The position numbers and the translations under genes are program-made. This document shows positions 4,307-37,915 of a DNA stretch of 37,915 nt, one piece after another. Source of the stretch: a virus; the IMG/VR virus record IMGVR_UViG_3300009943_000002, positions 1 to 37,915 of that record. One strand, 5' to 3'. Each line of letters starts with the position of its first letter. Position 1 is the stretch's first letter. A model generated the notes under the pieces. It was not told the origin of the DNA. It made no database searches and worked only from the letters and a program-made list of their open reading frames with translations.

Positions 4307-5780
4307 CTTTCCCCCCCATCGAATAATTCAAAACATCATATTCAATCTTCGCCTGCTGCCGGGCCCGCTCTCTACCTCGCCATCCCTCTTTTCTGACAGG
4401 CCGTGCGAAGGAGAGGGCCAAAGCATCGGCCCGGTTCGGCGAGGGCAATCCCCGCTTTTTCATGTCGTCCTTCGATTCCAGGAGTAGCTTCCCGGCATTT
4501 TTGCCCGTGGCAATCACATGGGCCTCCGGTCCTATCAGGTCGTCGCACAACACACGATCATCTGGGATAGCTCCACCATCCCGCAACCATTCCTTCATCT
4601 GCGCCCACATATACATCCGTAGGTTGGCATATTGCGGATCCGGAGATGCCTCCCCGAAGGGTACAATGATCCAGTCCCGTCCCAGTTGTTTGCCCGCCGA
4701 ATAGACCCCGGTCCCATAGCCAAAATCAATAAACACGGCATCAGCCTGGTGCTCATCCTCCAGCCTGGCCAAATGACCGGCAATGACCATGTCGTTGTCG
4801 TTTTTCGGGAATGTAGCCAAGATCGAAAAGACCAGGCCCTGCCTCATCCCGATCACCGTTTCATCGCTCCCTGTCCAGGCGTTGTCGAGGGTAATGATCT
4901 TGGGCGCCCACTGATATTTGGTGATATGATACTGCCTGGCCCTCGCCTCCTCGACATACTCGCGGGGGATGAATTGATGGTCCGATGCAGAAGGGAATTG
5001 CCCGAGAATGCGGACCTTGACAAAGTCAGAGTCCAGCCCATAATCCTCGATCCATTGATTGATCTGATCCTTGTTGGTCCGGGTGACCGACCGGCTATCT
5101 ATTTGCCTGGTGATCCAGCGTGCTCGGAACCGATGGAAGCAATCAAAGAATCGCCCCTGATTGCGGGTGGGGTTGCCGAAGGCCAACCAGAAGGCCCCCC
5201 TCTCAGTCATGGCCCCCTCTGTTACCTCCCAAATCACATCATCGATCAGTGAGGCTTCGTCATAAATGATCAGGACATTTTCCTCATGCGTGCCCGCAAA
5301 AGCTTCTGACCGTTCTCGGGTCCATGGAATCGCTGAAGCGAACCAGGTCTCCGGATGTGGTATAAAGTAGAACTTGGTGGCTGTCCATTCAAACCAATGG
5401 GCATGTATGGCCAAACGATGCCACTTGGCCAATTCGCGCCATGTTTTTGTTGTGAGTTGGGTCTGGGTATTGGCCGTGACGACGATCTGCGGGTGGGCGC
5501 GGGTCGAGATGAACCAGAGGATGATCCAGGAGACCAGGGCTGTCTTGCCAATGCCGTGTCCAGAGGCTACCGCCACCCGCACAGACTCCCTGGATGTCAG
5601 GGTAGCCCTCCCGATCTCCGCCAGGATGTCCGCCTGCCAGGCCTCCGGACCGTCCTCACCGGCAAGCGGCCCCTCGCCCCAAGGGAAAATATAATGAACG
5701 AAACCAAGAGGGTCGTCGTAGAACTGGGCGACGTGATCCATCAGGGTCTCATCTCGTCTATTGGCCGTCATTACCGCCAT
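4293..5780 (-). CDS. terL: Terminase large subunit
   Basis: 495 aa with a Walker A-like ASGHGIGKT, a Walker B LIIYDEAS, and C-terminal nuclease-type motifs (VFIDFGYGTG, NRADALAL). Confidence 0.88.
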   Translation of the reverse strand: MAVMTANRRDETLMDHVAQFYDDPLGFVHYIFPWGEGPLAGEDGPEAWQADILAEIGRATLTSRESVRVAVASGHGIGKTALVSWIILWFISTRAHPQIVVTANTQTQLTTKTWRELAKWHRLAIHAHWFEWTATKFYFIPHPETWFASAIPWTRERSEAFAGTHEENVLIIYDEASLIDDVIWEVTEGAMTERGAFWLAFGNPTRNQGRFFDCFHRFRARWITRQIDSRSVTRTNKDQINQWIEDYGLDSDFVKVRILGQFPSASDHQFIPREYVEEARARQYHITKYQWAPKIITLDNAWTGSDETVIGMRQGLVFSILATFPKNDNDMVIAGHLARLEDEHQADAVFIDFGYGTGVYSAGKQLGRDWIIVPFGEASPDPQYANLRMYMWAQMKEWLRDGGAIPDDRVLCDDLIGPEAHVIATGKNAGKLLLESKDDMKKRGLPSPNRADALALSFARPVRKEGWRGRERARQQAKIEYDVLNYSMGGKDGRQ

Positions 5781-7477: not shown

Positions 7478-7517
7478 GGCCGACTATCCCAATGGGGGAT
7501 GGTCGGCCTTTTTTATT
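7478..7517 (+). terminator. Rho-independent terminator
   Basis: GGCCGAC (7478-7484) pairs with GTCGGCC (7502-7508) and there is additional internal pairing. It is followed by TTTTTTATTT. Confidence 0.7.
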
Positions 7518-7577
7518 TCGATCGGCCAAGGGCCGGAAGAAGTGGACAATTGTTATCGGGATGGTATCAACCGGTAC

Positions 7578-13696: not shown

Positions 13697-13838
13697 CTTC
13701 TCCTCCTTTCCGCCATTCAAGGTATTCAATCCTGGCTTGGAGCTCAAAAATTTTCCTGCCAGCTATCATGGCACAGCAAAAGAACCCCATGGTCGCCCCA
13801 CCAAGAAGAAGCAGTAGATAAATGATCCAGAATTTCAT
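13650..13838 (-). CDS. Small membrane protein (62 aa)
   Basis: N-terminal hydrophobic span FWIIYLLLLLGGATMGFFCCAMIAG. ATGA-coupled to the upstream gene. Confidence 0.55.
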   Translation of the reverse strand: MKFWIIYLLLLLGGATMGFFCCAMIAGRKIFELQARIEYLEWRKGGEDEHGPETIDDTKHIS

Positions 13839-14173
13839 TTTCTCATCCCCCCTTGCTCAATAATCTTCCACCCGCCCCAATCGTGCCTGGATGCATAGTC
13901 CAGGCATTGCTCGTAATGCTCGCAGCCTCCGTAGTATGGGTGATAGAGATAACACCCCACCGGTCTCCCAGTGGGAGCCTGCCGAATTAGGCATGATGCG
14001 GGCTGTCCAACCTCCTTCTGCATGTGCCTATTTCCCGCCTGGCCACCAGCGCCATTGCGCCGCAGCTCTCTATCCATCGGAATGCCCCTCACTGCCCGGT
14101 AATAGGCCGTCATGTAGCTGAGGCCATATGTTCTCATCCCGACCCATATCTCCGGGTATCGTATCCTAGGCAT
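13835..14173 (-). CDS. Hypothetical protein (112 aa) with a C-terminal Cys/His cluster
   Basis: GAGGAGG SD. The cluster is CYLYHPYYGGCEHYEQC. Confidence 0.55.
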   Translation of the reverse strand: MPRIRYPEIWVGMRTYGLSYMTAYYRAVRGIPMDRELRRNGAGGQAGNRHMQKEVGQPASCLIRQAPTGRPVGCYLYHPYYGGCEHYEQCLDYASRHDWGGWKIIEQGGMRK

Positions 14174-14193
14174 GGTTCCTCCTCATGACCGAG

Positions 14194-14265
14194 TTAGAGC
14201 CCCCGGTCTCGGAATTCGGGCATGGTCAAAGCGCCGACTTCTCCCACCGCCCAGATAGGGTTCAT
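14194..14265 (-). CDS. Micro-ORF (23 aa, MNPIWAVGEVGALTMPEFRDRGL) carrying copy 1 of the 22-bp repeat
   Basis: Its ATG overlaps the stop of the upstream gene (ATGA). It fills the gap to the next gene's SD. Confidence 0.35.
   Translation of the reverse strand: MNPIWAVGEVGALTMPEFRDRGL
14232..14253. repeat. 22-bp exact direct repeat, copy 1 (CGCCGACTTCTCCCACCGCCCA)
   Basis: Identical to 15407-15428. Confidence 0.95.
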
Positions 14266-14465
14266 TGCGCTAACTCCAACCTCTTGACTTCCTTGAGCTT
14301 TCTCTCGAAGAAGTCAATTAGCCCTTCTCTTGCTTCTTGCATGATTTCCGGCCCCATATATTCCAGGGCCATTTTGAGATAAACGGAAAGTTCGGGTAGG
14401 ATCGCCCAGGTCTCATCGGCCAGCCAGGCGGCGGGACAGGAATGGGATGAAGGGGAATTCGCCAT
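14262..14465 (-). CDS. Hypothetical early protein (67 aa)
   Basis: I prefer ATG 14465 with a GGGGG tract 7 nt upstream to the track's TTG start at 14477. Confidence 0.5.
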   Translation of the reverse strand: MANSPSSHSCPAAWLADETWAILPELSVYLKMALEYMGPEIMQEAREGLIDFFERKLKEVKRLELAQ

Positions 14466-14487
14466 CAAGACCCCCAATATAAATTTG

Positions 14488-14515
14488 TTGACAAATTATT
14501 TTGTTGTTCTATAAT
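14488..14515 (+). promoter_or_regulatory. Near-consensus sigma70 promoter TTGACA-16-TATAAT reading antisense into the cro-like gene
   Basis: TTGACA at 14488-14493 and TATAAT at 14510-14515. TTGTTG hexamers occur at 14485, 14501 and 14515. Confidence 0.55.
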
Positions 14516-14745
14516 TGTTGATATTGGTCGGTCCATATCTCCCGGGGGTCAACCCCGAGGATACGGCATAGCTCCGCCCTGACCTCGGGGAGAACGAGGC
14601 TCCCCCGGAAGATATGGTTGACCGTGGACCGGTGGATCTTCCGGCCCAACCGCTCGGTCAACATATCGGCGAGTTTGGCCTGCGATAGGCCTTTCTCGAT
14701 GGTTAGGATCTTTAAACGACGATGGACAGGATTGAGTTCATACAT
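14509..14745 (-). CDS. Cro-like XRE-family HTH regulator, first gene of the early operon
   Basis: 78 aa. LSQAKLADMLTERLGRKIHRSTVNHIFRG forms an HTH. AGGGAGG SD. It is divergent from the cI-like gene. Confidence 0.75.
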   Translation of the reverse strand: MYELNPVHRRLKILTIEKGLSQAKLADMLTERLGRKIHRSTVNHIFRGSLVLPEVRAELCRILGVDPREIWTDQYQQL

Positions 14746-14779
14746 TGACTCTACCTCCCTTAGGTAAAATTATGCCGTC

Positions 14780-14808
14780 GAAATACAACAATTGTTGGAA
14801 TATGTCAA
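14780..14808 (-). promoter_or_regulatory. Candidate early (PR-like) promoter with a palindromic operator in its spacer
   Basis: On the minus strand, TTGACA lies at 14808-14803 and TATTTC at 14785-14780, with a 17-nt spacer. That spacer contains the perfect palindrome CAACAATTGTTG (14786-14797). AAATACAACA recurs at 14781 and 14814. Confidence 0.5.
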
Positions 14809-14842
14809 GTTAAAAATACAACACTTATTTAAATTAAGTTAA

Positions 14843-15280
14843 ATGGCTGAAAAATCTCCAGAATTTAGCGCAAGACTAAACGCCCTATTTAAAGAAAGGG
14901 GGCTAAATCCAAACAGGTTTGCCAATGTTCTGGGGATAAAGACGCAAAGTATCTATAACTATTTGAAAGAAGGACGAATTCCGGAAGCGCCCATTCTATA
15001 TAAAATTGCCCAAGCCCTGGGCGTCTCTATGGAATGGCTCTTAACTGGAAATGGCGAAGAAAAACAGGGGGATAGGACTGGCAGGCTTACCCGTTTCGAT
15101 GACTATCTTTTGCAAAAAGACCCGGCATACAAAAAGGCAAAGGACGACCTGTATCGTATCTTCGCCTCCAAGCGGCCCGATATAAAAAAGGTGGTGGCTA
15201 ATAACCTGGCGGTCTGCGCCGAGACCGTTGATGCTCATGAGAGACATCTACTTACGACAGGAACGGCGCCTGGAAAATAG
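14843..15280 (+). CDS. CI-like XRE-family repressor without a recognisable S24 peptidase domain
   Basis: 145 aa with an N-terminal HTH (FANVLGIKTQSIYNYLKEGRIP...ALGVSMEWLLTG). It is divergent from the cro-like gene. No SD precedes the ATG. Confidence 0.75.
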   Translation: MAEKSPEFSARLNALFKERGLNPNRFANVLGIKTQSIYNYLKEGRIPEAPILYKIAQALGVSMEWLLTGNGEEKQGDRTGRLTRFDDYLLQKDPAYKKAKDDLYRIFASKRPDIKKVVANNLAVCAETVDAHERHLLTTGTAPGK

Positions 15281-15281
15281 C

Positions 15282-15320
15282 TCGGGGCCGTGGCCATGTA
15301 TCACCGGCCACTGGCCCCGA
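15282..15320 (+). terminator. GC-rich hairpin after the cI-like gene (terminator/attenuator lacking a U-tract)
   Basis: GGGGCCGTGGCC (15284-15295) pairs with GGCCACTGGCCCC (15306-15318), with one bulge. It starts 2 nt after the TAG stop. Confidence 0.45.
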
Positions 15321-15371
15321 AGACGAGGAACGGGGGAAGGTAATCTATGTTAAATTTTGAATTATTTTAAA

Positions 15372-15400
15372 TTGACGGCCACAATGAAATGTTCTACATT
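15372..15400 (+). promoter_or_regulatory. Candidate int promoter TTGACG-17-TACATT
   Basis: TTGACG at 15372-15377 and TACATT at 15395-15400, 41 nt upstream of the int ATG. Confidence 0.5.
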
Positions 15401-15406
15401 GGAGTT

Positions 15407-15428
15407 CGCCGACTTCTCCCACCGCCCA
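15407..15428. repeat. 22-bp exact direct repeat, copy 2, in the int leader
   Basis: Identical to 14232-14253. It begins about 7 nt after the candidate -10 element and ends 4 nt before GGAG (15433-15436). Confidence 0.95.
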
Positions 15429-15441
15429 TCCTGGAGACAAG

Positions 15442-16506
15442 ATGGGCATTCTTTCCCCGCCACTAACCATGCGATGTAAGTGGTATCAGAAGGGGCCGAA
15501 TTCCTACCAGGTTTATCTGCACTGGAAGGGTAAGGCCTACTACCGATCCCATTACGACCATCGCCTCAAGCTGATCAACGAAGAGATGGCCCGCCGTCTG
15601 GCCGATGCCATCAACCAAGACATAGACCTGAAGGGTCCAGGGTTTGATCCGAGGCAATGGTTTGAGACCAAAGGGTTTCTATTCCAAGAGTATGCCAACA
15701 GGTGGCTGGCCGAAAACCAAGGCAGATACGCACCATCGGTGGTGAGAGATGTGGTTCGTATGGTGTCGTCTTTCGTCGCCTATTTCGGCGAAATGGACAT
15801 CAGGTCTATTAGGGCCGGCAACATCGCTGACTATCTCAAAACTCTATCCCACCTGTCGACCAAGACACAAAAGAACTACTTGATTCAGCTCCATAAGATT
15901 TTTTCCGATGCCCTAAAGCGGGAAGACATTGCCCGGATCCCAGGATTCCCGACCATCCACATCCCAGAGCCGGAAACCAGGTGGCTGTCCGAAGCGGAGC
16001 AGGATAGAGTATTCGAGCATATCCCGTATGAGCACCGCCCCATCTTTTGGTTTCTCCGAATCTATGCCTGCCGTCCAGCAGAGGCCAGGGCCCTAATGTG
16101 GGACATGGTGTCCTTTGAAAAAGGAATCGTTGTCGTCAAGCGGTCCTTCTCCGGGGGCCAATTAAGAGAGCACACCAAGGCCAGGGAGATTAGGTATCTG
16201 CCCATGATTGAGCCCATAACCTCCATCCTTAGAGAGATTAGAGGGATCAGCGGTTTTGTCTTCAGACAACCCAATGGTAGGCCCTATGGCGCTGATATGG
16301 GCAAGATCTGGAATAGGGCCTGTGATGCGGCCGGCGTCGAAAGGATATGCCTCTACCAGGGGACCAGGCACAGCCGTGCCACCCAACTGGCGAGAGATGG
16401 CAAGAGTCTAAGGGGAATACGAGACCTCCTCGGACATGCCAGCCAAAGAACCACAGATCGCTACGAGAAAGCCGCCGCCGAAGGGATCAGAAAACTGCTG
16501 GAATGA
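15442..16506 (+). CDS. int: Tyrosine integrase
   Basis: 354 aa. It has RPAEARAL (catalytic Arg), TRHSRATQLA and LLGHASQRTTDRYEK (His-x-x-Arg and the nucleophile Tyr). It lies adjacent to attP. Confidence 0.9.
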   Translation: MGILSPPLTMRCKWYQKGPNSYQVYLHWKGKAYYRSHYDHRLKLINEEMARRLADAINQDIDLKGPGFDPRQWFETKGFLFQEYANRWLAENQGRYAPSVVRDVVRMVSSFVAYFGEMDIRSIRAGNIADYLKTLSHLSTKTQKNYLIQLHKIFSDALKREDIARIPGFPTIHIPEPETRWLSEAEQDRVFEHIPYEHRPIFWFLRIYACRPAEARALMWDMVSFEKGIVVVKRSFSGGQLREHTKAREIRYLPMIEPITSILREIRGISGFVFRQPNGRPYGADMGKIWNRACDAAGVERICLYQGTRHSRATQLARDGKSLRGIRDLLGHASQRTTDRYEKAAAEGIRKLLE

Positions 16507-16508
16507 GA

Positions 16509-16528
16509 AACCTTGCAGAACCTTGCCG
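16509..16528. repeat. Two ACCTTGC repeats, putative integrase arm-type sites (P arm)
   Basis: AACCTTGCAG at 16509-16518 and AACCTTGCCG at 16519-16528. Confidence 0.55.
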
Positions 16529-16565
16529 CCCCACCCATATCTAACCGATAATATTACATAACATT

Positions 16566-16592
16566 CGGGTTCGAACCCCGTTGGGACCACCA
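16566..16592 (+). other. attP core: 3' end of a tRNA (T-arm, acceptor strand and CCA)
   Basis: CGGGTTCGAACCCCGTTGGGACCACCA contains a T-loop TTCGAAC flanked by CGGG/CCCG, then the acceptor 3' strand TGGGACC, discriminator A and CCA. No D-arm or anticodon arm lies upstream. It is 60 nt downstream of int. Confidence 0.7.
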
Positions 16593-16630
16593 GATTTTCA
16601 TAATATTTCCAATATATTACCAACTTGATG

Positions 16631-16672
16631 GACCTTGCGAAACCTTGCGGGAGATTGTCGGCAACCTTGCAG
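16631..16672. repeat. Three ACCTTGC repeats, putative integrase arm-type sites (P' arm)
   Basis: GACCTTGCG at 16631, AACCTTGCG at 16641 and AACCTTGCAG at 16663. All have the same orientation as the P-arm copies. Confidence 0.55.
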
Positions 16673-16802
16673 TATTTACAAGCTGTGGGCAGGTGTGATA
16701 TAAGACGGGTCTGGAACGGTCATCGCCCGTTGTGATCGTTCGACCCCTGATCAGAAGGGTACTGAGACGGGAAGGGGGTAGGCCCCGGAAACCCTGTTAG
16801 AA

Positions 16803-16830
16803 GGGCGGGGATTCTACCCCCCTTTTTATT
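16803..16830. terminator. Rho-independent terminator between convergent int and moron genes
   Basis: GGGCGGGG (16803-16810), loop attcta, CCCCCC (16817-16822), then TTTTTATT. An A-tract on the other side allows bidirectional function. Confidence 0.65.
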
Positions 16831-16838
16831 CGATAGGA

Positions 16839-17111
16839 CTACCAGATTTGACCTCTCCTCTGAGTTCCTCCTCCAAAGCTGTTATAGGGATCGCCCGGAG
16901 TGATGATTCCCTTGTTGGGGTTGTAATTTCCGGGATAATTGTAATTATCGGTCCGGGTCCCGTTAGGATAGGTCCTCTGATAGGGCTGGACCCAGGTATC
17001 CTTTACCCCATCCCGGTCGGTGTCCCGCCAGTATCCATGCACCCAGGCCCCGAAAGACACCGATGCAAAAACCAAGACCATTGCCAAGGCCAAAAATACG
17101 ATTTTTTTCAT
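16839..17111 (-). CDS. Small secreted protein (90 aa) with a DxDxDGxxD calcium-binding-like motif; a moron next to attP
   Basis: ATG 17111 follows GGGGAGGTG. It has a signal peptide (MKKIVFLALAMVLVFASVSFG-AW), a DTDRDGVKD motif, and a PNGTRTDNYNYPGNYNPNKG motif that I recall from small secreted bacterial proteins. Confidence 0.65.
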   Translation of the reverse strand: MKKIVFLALAMVLVFASVSFGAWVHGYWRDTDRDGVKDTWVQPYQRTYPNGTRTDNYNYPGNYNPNKGIITPGDPYNSFGGGTQRRGQIW

Positions 17112-17147
17112 AGGCACCTCCCCAAAAAATAATTTTACACCATGTTT

Positions 17148-17176
17148 ATTTTACGGAGGTAACCTGCCAATGTCAA
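17148..17176 (-). promoter_or_regulatory. Near-consensus sigma70 promoter TTGACA-17-TAAAAT for the secreted-protein moron
   Basis: On the minus strand, TTGACA lies at 17176-17171 and TAAAAT at 17153-17148. Confidence 0.6.
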
Positions 17177-17183
17177 CAAATTT

Positions 17184-17510
17184 TTATTGGTTATCCAGGC
17201 CAAGAATTTCTTCAATTTTTTTGACACGAACAAGAATGTCCTTGACGTTGAGACGGTCTTCCTGCCCAGCCTGTTCTGCTCTTAGGGCCGCCAATTCAAG
17301 CCTGGCCCGCTCCTCTTTCTCTTTTTGAGCCGCAACCTTCTGTTCTTCTGCGGTTCTGAATGCTTCATACTCGGCAGTCCATTGATCTAATTGTGCCTGG
17401 GTCGGTATTGGTCCAAGGACTTGCGGCCATTCAGTTATCTGATCGCCAACTGTGCGTATTCCCGGAGCTTTTTCAAATTTCCAAGCCAAGATTTCAGCGA
17501 TATTATGCAT
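17184..17510 (-). CDS. Hypothetical protein downstream of the tail fibre (possible fibre chaperone)
   Basis: 108 aa with an AAGGAGGG SD and a C-terminal coiled coil. Position is the only functional clue. Confidence 0.5.
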   Translation of the reverse strand: MHNIAEILAWKFEKAPGIRTVGDQITEWPQVLGPIPTQAQLDQWTAEYEAFRTAEEQKVAAQKEKEERARLELAALRAEQAGQEDRLNVKDILVRVKKIEEILGLDNQ

Positions 17511-37861: not shown

Positions 37862-37915
37862 CTACGAGACCGCAGATTCGGTATCGAGGATAGCATCCAC
37901 TTTCCGAACCGGGCA
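37862..37915 (-). CDS. 3' end of the major capsid gene (continuation of 1-957 across the circular junction)
   Basis: TAG lies at 37864-37862. 37874-37915 duplicates 1-42. Confidence 0.8.
   Translation of the reverse strand, partial: CPVRKVDAILDTESAVS

Follow-up and report, generated by a model that had tools for sequence, protein, structure and literature searches.

Co-varying direct repeats suggest RNA pairing in trans between the early transcript and the integrase mRNA leader in phages of uncultivated hosts

The DNA analysed here is a viral sequence of 37,915 nucleotides (IMG/VR record IMGVR_UViG_3300009943_000002, positions 1 to 37,915; the whole stretch is called the window), and the element in question is a 22-nt direct repeat with one copy just upstream of the integrase gene int and the other inside the oppositely transcribed early operon. 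The window represents a phage genome of ~37,873 bp that was assembled as a circle, its first and last 42 nucleotides (1-42 and 37874-37915) being an exact direct repeat that represents assembly overlap. When positions 13800-16900 were searched by blastn against 50,697 phage records, no match was found. The cro/cI control region carries TTGTTG/CAACAA half-sites, including a palindrome at 14786-14797, and leftward of a 112-aa open reading frame (ORF) lie exonuclease, HNH, and replication-initiator genes (PHROG matches), on which basis the minus-strand operon was taken to be the early lytic operon. The features of the locus are as follows, with SD standing for the Shine-Dalgarno sequence and HTH for helix-turn-helix.

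13835-14173, minus strand: 112-aa early ORF (ORF list), directly downstream of the anti-leader
~14174-14261: gap between the 71-aa and 112-aa ORFs, containing copy 1
14232-14253, minus strand: copy 1 of the repeat, read as the anti-leader UGGGCGGUGGGAGAAGUCGGCG inside the early-operon transcript
14262-14477, minus strand: 71-aa ORF of uncertain start (ORF list), directly upstream of the anti-leader
14509-14745, minus strand: cro-like HTH gene (Pfam HTH_3, PHROG repressor families), first gene of the early operon
14843-15280, plus strand: cI-like repressor gene with an HTH domain (Pfam HTH_19, HTH_3, and Phage_CI_repr; PHROG transcriptional repressor families), in the same orientation as int
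15281-15441: 161-nt gap between the cI-like gene and int, containing copy 2
15372-15400, plus strand: predicted int promoter, TTGACG-17-TACATT (promoter scan, 9/12 matches)
15407-15428, plus strand: copy 2 of the repeat, predicted to be approximately the first 22 nt of the int mRNA and comprising a single-stranded tail plus the first 5 nt of the hairpin 5' arm
15424-15447, plus strand: predicted hairpin GCCCAUC(C)UG-GAGA-CA(A)GAUGGGC, with the SD mostly in the loop, the int AUG in the 3' arm, and the 5' arm overlapping the last 5 nt of copy 2
15442-16506, plus strand: int, a tyrosine recombinase of 354 aa (Pfam PF00589, E 8e-17)

Two exact copies of CGCCGACTTCTCCCACCGCCCA are present in the window. 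They occupy 14232-14253 and 15407-15428 on the plus strand and thus form a direct repeat with a spacing of 1175 bp; no third copy was found in the window when up to 3 mismatches were allowed. None of 100 dinucleotide shuffles contained such a 22-mer match, and the chance expectation (L^2/2/4^22) was ~4e-5. A first-pass annotation of this DNA had reported the same exact pair with a chance estimate of ~1e-4; the pair was confirmed and the estimate agrees in order of magnitude. The repeat brackets the cro-like gene, the cI-like gene, and the 71-aa ORF, and the sequences flanking its two copies show no relationship, even at its very edges. Copy 2 had also been described as the int 5' leader, beginning ~7 nt after a promoter and ending just short of the SD. 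We recovered that promoter, an offset of 6 nt between the -10 hexamer and the start of copy 2, and a gap of 4 nt (TCCT) between the end of copy 2 and the GGAG at 15433-15436, with the int ATG following at 15442-15444. On the basis of the predicted transcript start at ~15404-15407, the early transcript would contain a stretch perfectly antisense to the initial 22 bases of the int mRNA. The cognate RNA duplex of the window was calculated at -50.6 kcal/mol, compared with a mean of -22.6 kcal/mol for non-cognate pairs.

The first 17 nt of copy 2 are unpaired in the minimum free energy (MFE) fold, forming a C-rich tail that leads into the predicted hairpin over the int start codon. The MFE of the 68-nt leader was -16.5 kcal/mol, or -5.3 kcal/mol when the repeat was held unpaired, which served as a thermodynamic proxy for the leader engaged in a duplex. 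Under the same treatment the energy needed to open the ribosome-binding site (RBS) of the window decreased from 14.7 to 5.2 kcal/mol. Structures and promoters were predicted at 37 °C with parameters that are generic rather than host-specific.

Homologues of the integrase were collected, and for each locus the int leader was compared with the upstream 5 kb on both strands. Significant matches were obtained in 10 loci, representing nine distinct lineages (L011 is a close relative of the window). For each locus we list the integrase (Int) identity to the window, the match between the two copies, and their spacing.

Window: 22/22; 1175 bp
L011: Int 95%; 20/22; 1175 bp
L006: Int 58%; 26 exact, 29/30; 1746 bp
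L009: Int 57%; 19/20; 2062 bp
L027: Int 49%; 21/21; 1491 bp
L030: Int 46%; 25/27 with two 1-nt indels; 2582 bp
L033: Int 46%; 22/23; 1073 bp
L103: Int 51%; 21/21; 969 bp
L104: Int 48%; 24/24; 1264 bp
L106: Int 45%; 27/27; 1630 bp

In an ungapped scan the matches were 18-27 nt long against a shuffle maximum of 14, and blastn-short E values for L103, L104, and L106 ranged from 3e-7 to 7e-11. The ungapped core of L030 is just 13 nt (local shuffle maximum 10), and its 25/27 match is reached with indels. Each lineage has its own 20-30-nt sequence, and has it in both places: by column-wise comparison of nine loci (L030 being left out on account of its indels), cognate copies were 97.6% identical and non-cognate copies 49% (maximum 62%), and both copies changed together in 18 of the 21 variable columns. 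The substitutions separating cognate copies (n = 5) are all C/T, and would give three U.G wobbles and two C.A mismatches if the RNAs paired. Cognate RNA duplexes had calculated energies of -38 to -70 kcal/mol. The repeat is direct on the DNA in all 10 loci, and no inverted match between leader and upstream sequence rose above the shuffle null; given that the two regions are transcribed in opposite directions, the two RNAs are complementary in every case. The comparison of related phages that had been suggested as a check on the first-pass annotation thus found both copies kept and co-varying, in complementary orientation, in nine distinct lineages.

The position of the leader copy is as regular as its orientation. 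It begins 4-10 nt past a predicted -10 hexamer, hence at the predicted transcription start (10/10 loci), with a TTGAC(A/G/T)-N16-17 promoter at the equivalent distance upstream in all loci and a TGn extended -10 in several, and it ends 10-19 nt before the start codon, short of the SD (10/10). Its 3' end forms the 5' arm of a predicted hairpin that buries the start codon or the SD, again in all 10 loci, such that the repeat spans the unpaired tail plus 4-18 nt of the hairpin arm. In eight of them a ..CCCAU.. arm pairs with AUGGG.., placing the start codon in the 3' arm and the SD in or beside the loop; in L009 and L030 the hairpin ends directly before the AUG, and the SD lies in the stem. L103 has a GUG start, with the matching C present both in the 5' arm and in copy 1. 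The start codon within or next to each hairpin is in frame with a conserved internal Met of the integrase (10/10 loci), which argues that it is the real start. Because a MAFFT alignment of the leaders was too gappy to be trusted for a formal covariation analysis, the hairpins were compared individually. Opening the RBS (-12 to +13) was calculated to cost 14.5-22.6 kcal/mol in the free leader and 5.2-16.2 kcal/mol with the repeat unpaired, a decrease in each of the 10 loci (1.1-11.3, mean 7.6 kcal/mol).

Copy 1 is situated between minus-strand early genes or, for L104, in the early 5' region; the genes around it are not conserved, and its relation to the int leader alone is. The closest distinct relative (P0003, Int 72%) shows the same leader design on a contig that breaks 251 nt upstream of int, and so contributes a leader without the region of copy 1. 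A close relative represented by two IMG/VR contigs (~90% nucleotide identity) retains both copies, copy 1 being the same as that of the window and copy 2 having two C/T changes; by itself this retention says little, as the flanks are equally conserved. Among relatives with Int identities of 38% or less, no repeat shared by leader and early region was found. A separate subgroup (L029, L031, L032, L034-L037, L041-L043, and L049) with Int identities of 43-48% has a very short leader made up of the 5'-terminal hairpin AUCCCCC..loop..GGGGGGAU, in which the SD is buried.

We consider it likely that the early transcript and the int leader undergo functional RNA-RNA pairing in trans. Such pairing predicts that the copies co-vary, that their orientation is constant, that the leader copy begins where the mRNA does, and that it overlaps the hairpin arm, none of which is predicted by models in which the repeat is a DNA-binding site or a scar. 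The further proposal that this pairing activates int translation by a toehold-type switch is put forward tentatively, with a probability that we place just short of even; in its favour, the complementarity enters the arm and halts ahead of the SD in every locus, and the RBS opening energy decreases. The sequence is compatible with two published modes of control that differ in direction. We infer that the two RNAs encounter one another in the cell and that the outcome is activation. The first-pass annotation had proposed antisense control of int in trans by the early transcript, with repression during lytic growth. The pairing is upheld by the co-variation and orientation, and the repressive direction was not established: in view of the hairpin overlap, the stop before the SD, and the less costly RBS opening, activation fits at least as well as repression.

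According to the activation proposal, the int mRNA would consist of an unstructured tail of ~17 nt followed by the hairpin at 15424-15447, and int translation would be off by default. The early operon would be transcribed leftward from the cro promoter, placing the anti-leader ~0.5 kb into the transcript as an embedded trigger. With the early operon on, after infection or induction, this trigger would anneal to the int mRNA tail, invade the stem, and free the SD and AUG, allowing Int to be made. In a stable lysogen the early operon would be repressed, and int mRNA arising from the int promoter or from cI read-through would remain untranslated. The logic would be that of a toehold switch or of an anti-antisense activator.

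Toehold switches are designed with the RBS in a loop, the AUG in a stem, and a single-stranded toehold at the 5' end, together with a trigger that acts by invading that stem (PMC10132225). The phage leaders resemble such synthetic switches, having an unstructured 5' toehold next to a hairpin whose loop holds the RBS and whose stem holds the AUG. An inhibitory hairpin is predicted in all 10 loci, and each is accompanied by a trans RNA complementary to the toehold and 5' arm that leaves the RBS free. Natural anti-antisense activators of the DsrA/rpoS type share the latter feature, a trans RNA complementary to toehold and 5' arm that stops before the RBS (PMC2831331). Unlike the triggers of both types, that of the phages is an intergenic stretch of a polycistronic mRNA rather than a dedicated small RNA, its predicted invasion of the stem is limited to 4-18 nt, and it would act on a phage integrase.

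Several observations weigh against activation or against a general role of the element. The evidence is wholly computational and concerns phages of uncultivated hosts. Not all relatives have the device: the L107 prophage (Int 64%) has a near-leaderless int and lacks the repeat, and in the subgroup with Int identities of 43-48% a short C-run/G-run hairpin covers the SD and no long partner was detected upstream. L011 tolerates two differences between its copies (20/22), one of which gives a C.A mismatch. The predicted gain in RBS opening is small for L030 (1.1 kcal/mol) and L006 (4.7 kcal/mol), and the RBS, once freed, is often drawn into weaker alternative pairings in MFE cofolds. The accessibility of the anti-leader in the predicted fold of the early RNA is not above that of its context. 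A perfect duplex of 20-30 bp is also a plausible substrate of RNase III. The leaders also have the arrangement of a standby site, namely an unpaired tail (by MFE) beside a structured RBS together with a perfect or near-perfect antisense, and perfect antisense covering a standby site represses translation in the tisB/IstR-1 system (PMC6690012).

The same pairing could accordingly have the opposite outcome, with the early transcript covering the standby tail and creating an RNase III substrate, and int being turned off in lytic growth. We judge this somewhat unlikely, although it is a serious competitor of the activation proposal. The tail would let int be translated in spite of the hairpin, and Int would be allowed once CI silences the early operon, as well as in lysogens. 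The evidence from co-variation, orientation, and position applies equally here, as does the closeness of the 20-30-nt repeat to the minimal RNase III duplex, and the location of int downstream of cI, in the lysogeny-side orientation, fits Int expression in cells committed to lysogeny. Unstructured 5' tails do override structured RBSs (PMC5934652). The precedent of tisB/IstR-1 combines a structured (sequestered) RBS, an upstream single-stranded standby region, and a perfect antisense whose duplex is long enough for, and is cleaved by, RNase III (PMC6690012); in the phages the tail abuts the hairpin directly, the antisense also enters the stem, and the regulator lies within an mRNA. Stem invasion is not needed for repression by this route, yet the complementarity enters the 5' arm by at least 4 nt in 10/10 loci and is predicted to dissolve the start-codon hairpin. 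Repression at induction would moreover cut Int when excision needs it, unless pre-made Int suffices.

Reverse or two-way control, in which the 5' end of the int mRNA pairs with the early transcript between the second and third genes and lowers expression of the downstream genes by cleavage or polarity, appears improbable. Less expression of recombination and replication genes would favour lysogeny, as with the lambda OOP or PaQ antisense RNAs. The pairing evidence is the same for this account; copy 1 always occupies an intergenic gap before the bulk of the early genes, and the G+C-rich hairpin present after the anti-leader in several lineages could lend stability to a downstream fragment released by processing. 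Against it, the anti-leader is 45-85 nt from the next SD and does not occlude it, and the conserved int start-codon hairpin is given no role.

It is quite improbable that the repeat is a site on double-stranded DNA for a phage protein of co-evolving specificity, such as the small protein whose ORF directly precedes copy 1. Such a protein would bind at +1 to +22 of the int promoter and a second time in the early operon, and would work as a repressor, as a roadblock, or through looping. In favour of this account, heteroimmune phages do have operators that co-vary with their repressors, a promoter can be blocked from a site at +1 to +22, and copy 1 is always preceded by a small, poorly conserved ORF. 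The repeat, however, has no dyad or repeated half-site, its length ranges over 20-30 nt, and its copies are identical or nearly so over the full length, unlike natural operator sets. It is also direct in 10/10 loci although a DNA site works either way round (p ~0.002 for nine independent lineages), its boundaries follow RNA features (the transcription start and the hairpin arm), and in sequence it bears no relation to the TTGTTG/CAACAA operators of the cro/cI control region. The duplicated protein site considered in the first-pass annotation is disfavoured on the same grounds of absent symmetry, variable length, and uniform orientation. Last, that the repeat has no function, being a recombination scar, a linker for module exchange as that annotation had also envisaged, or a duplication kept alike by gene conversion, is hardly credible even though the repeats bracket the immunity cassette, for the pair is retained in nine lineages with unrelated flanks while its sequence changes in step, linkers for exchange between phages should be common to them whereas these are lineage-specific, and 20-30 bp is too short for efficient conversion.

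Lambda controls int through CII/PI, through N read-through, and through sib, all of which differ from mRNA-mRNA pairing. Like sib, the element studied here would exert post-transcriptional control of int according to which transcript is made, possibly via RNase III. The functional comparison with sib drawn earlier was not borne out in its specifics: sib lies 3' of int as a cis hairpin on read-through transcripts and is uncoupled by integration, whereas the phage element is in the int 5' leader, with its partner 1175 bp upstream on the other strand, and acts in trans if at all. The attachment site, probably at 16510-16670, is downstream of int, and the leader element is therefore not separated from int by integration. 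The c4 RNAs of P1/P7 and the CI RNA of P4 are further phage RNAs that regulate via short complementary sites elsewhere in the genome, sites that co-vary and give lineage specificity. These are processed, structured small RNAs with sites in their own transcript, and they control anti-repressor or replication genes, whereas the target in the window is int, on a divergent transcript. No Rfam family, C4 included, was matched at the gathering threshold in the window, and the region 13800-15600, scanned at E up to 10, gave chance-level hits to unrelated families only; membership in the C4/CI-type antisense RNA family was rejected for want of a covariance-model match.

Trans-encoded antisense control and toehold-like activation are already known kinds of regulation. 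A full-text literature search retrieved no paper describing a phage int leader targeted by a trans-antisense element, or a trigger embedded in an early operon. If the pairing is real, the lysis-lysogeny circuitry would gain a layer of RNA-RNA control, with mRNA-mRNA pairing directly coupling the supply of Int to the activity of the early operon. If activation is its outcome, these phages would possess a natural equivalent of the engineered toehold switch, in at least nine trigger-switch pairs among which cross-pairing is predicted to be weak. The fullest form of the proposal, a temperate phage family, probably infecting Thermodesulfobacteriota, with a natural toehold switch whose orthogonal trigger-switch pairs form an RNA-level counterpart of heteroimmunity, is plausible but somewhat doubtful on balance. 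The case shows that sequence by itself can uncover trans RNA interactions of uncultivated phages, through short repeats that co-vary between regions transcribed in opposite directions.

Copy 1 had been placed in a micro-ORF of the early operon, and such an ORF (14194-14265, minus strand, 23 codons, ATGA overlap) is indeed present in the window and covers it. In the 90%-identical relative this ORF has a GTG start and three of its four substitutions are non-synonymous, and the other lineages have no counterpart. The micro-ORF was consequently rejected as a gene, and the stretch around copy 1 is treated as non-coding. No Pfam or PHROG family was matched by the 71-aa ORF upstream. A plus-strand promoter before copy 1, which could have started a separate antisense RNA, was also rejected, since the upstream sequence is a G+C-rich hairpin and no promoter hexamers occur there in any lineage. 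Two features flank the anti-leader in the early RNA.

14254-14270, minus strand: conserved motif directly 5' of the anti-leader, GCGCAAUGAACCCUAUC, with related motifs at the same place in other lineages
14189-14212, minus strand: hairpin rich in G+C that separates the anti-leader from the SD of the 112-aa gene (sequence and fold), with no U tract following

The motif was seen at the same relative place in L027, L030, L103, L104, L106, L006, and L033, in the variants GUGAACCCUWUC, GUCAACCCUYUAAC, UCUAACCCUCUAACC, and CUUAACCCCCAACC, and is loosely boxA-like; its complementarity to the int RBS is no greater than chance. The flank of the early RNA likewise showed no pairing with the int SD/AUG beyond chance (a fraction of 0.27-0.96 of the shuffles reached the observed energy or a lower one). 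Extended pairing of this flank was therefore discarded as no better than shuffles, and the extra trans pairs that appeared in one cofold are unsupported. G+C-rich hairpins occupy the equivalent place downstream of the anti-leader in L033, L104, and L106. In L006 a hairpin resembling an intrinsic terminator and followed by a U run, AAGGGGUGGGAUUAAUAACCUACCCCUUUUUUU, is located at ~5255-5290 on the minus strand, within the early operon and just upstream of the motif and anti-leader; the trigger of that phage may be made only upon read-through or antitermination.

Downstream of int, a core resembling a tRNA 3' end, TTCGAACCCCGTTGGGACCACCA, was found at 16570-16592, flanked by five ACCTTGC arm-type repeats (16510, 16520, 16632, 16642, and 16664), and it is on these that the probable assignment of attP to 16510-16670 is based. 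The same core is present at a prophage-host junction in contig CAWAKF010000039.1 of a delta-proteobacterial metagenome-assembled genome (L107, ~7500-7530), and one related contig ends ~25 bp past the core. No tRNA or tmRNA gene was detected in the window. The 22-nt repeat was accordingly rejected as an att core, as it is not tRNA-like and the real core lies downstream of int, and as an Int arm site, given that the arm repeats (ACCTTGC in the window and ACGTTGACA in L006) are unrelated to the leader repeats; in the relatives, too, neither the core nor the arm repeats match the leader repeat. A repressor operator was excluded as well, the 22-mer having neither dyad nor TTGTTG symmetry and its length varying between lineages.

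Other observations concern the immunity region. A perfect consensus promoter (TTGACA-16-TATAAT) is present at 14488-14515 on the plus strand, in the interval from the 71-aa ORF to cro; it runs antisense to cro and towards cI, as a PRE does, and three TTGTTG half-sites overlap it. The 20 nt upstream (14474-14493) form a 95% inverted repeat with 17171-17190, the promoter region of a gene for a 92-aa small secreted protein. That gene (16839-17117, minus strand) encodes a signal peptide and an Asn/Tyr/Pro-rich tail and has its own strong promoter. It adjoins the lysogeny module, lying beyond attP in the window and between cI and int in L006 (6370-6648, plus strand), and looks like a lysogenic-conversion moron. 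Finally, the cI homologue of the ~90%-identical relatives has a GAA to TAA nonsense change after residue 72, leaving the HTH domain alone.

L002 ~5257 / L011 ~7619, equivalent to window ~15059: cI nonsense codon

These relatives may be clear-plaque-type variants, or the C-terminal part of the repressor may be dispensable.

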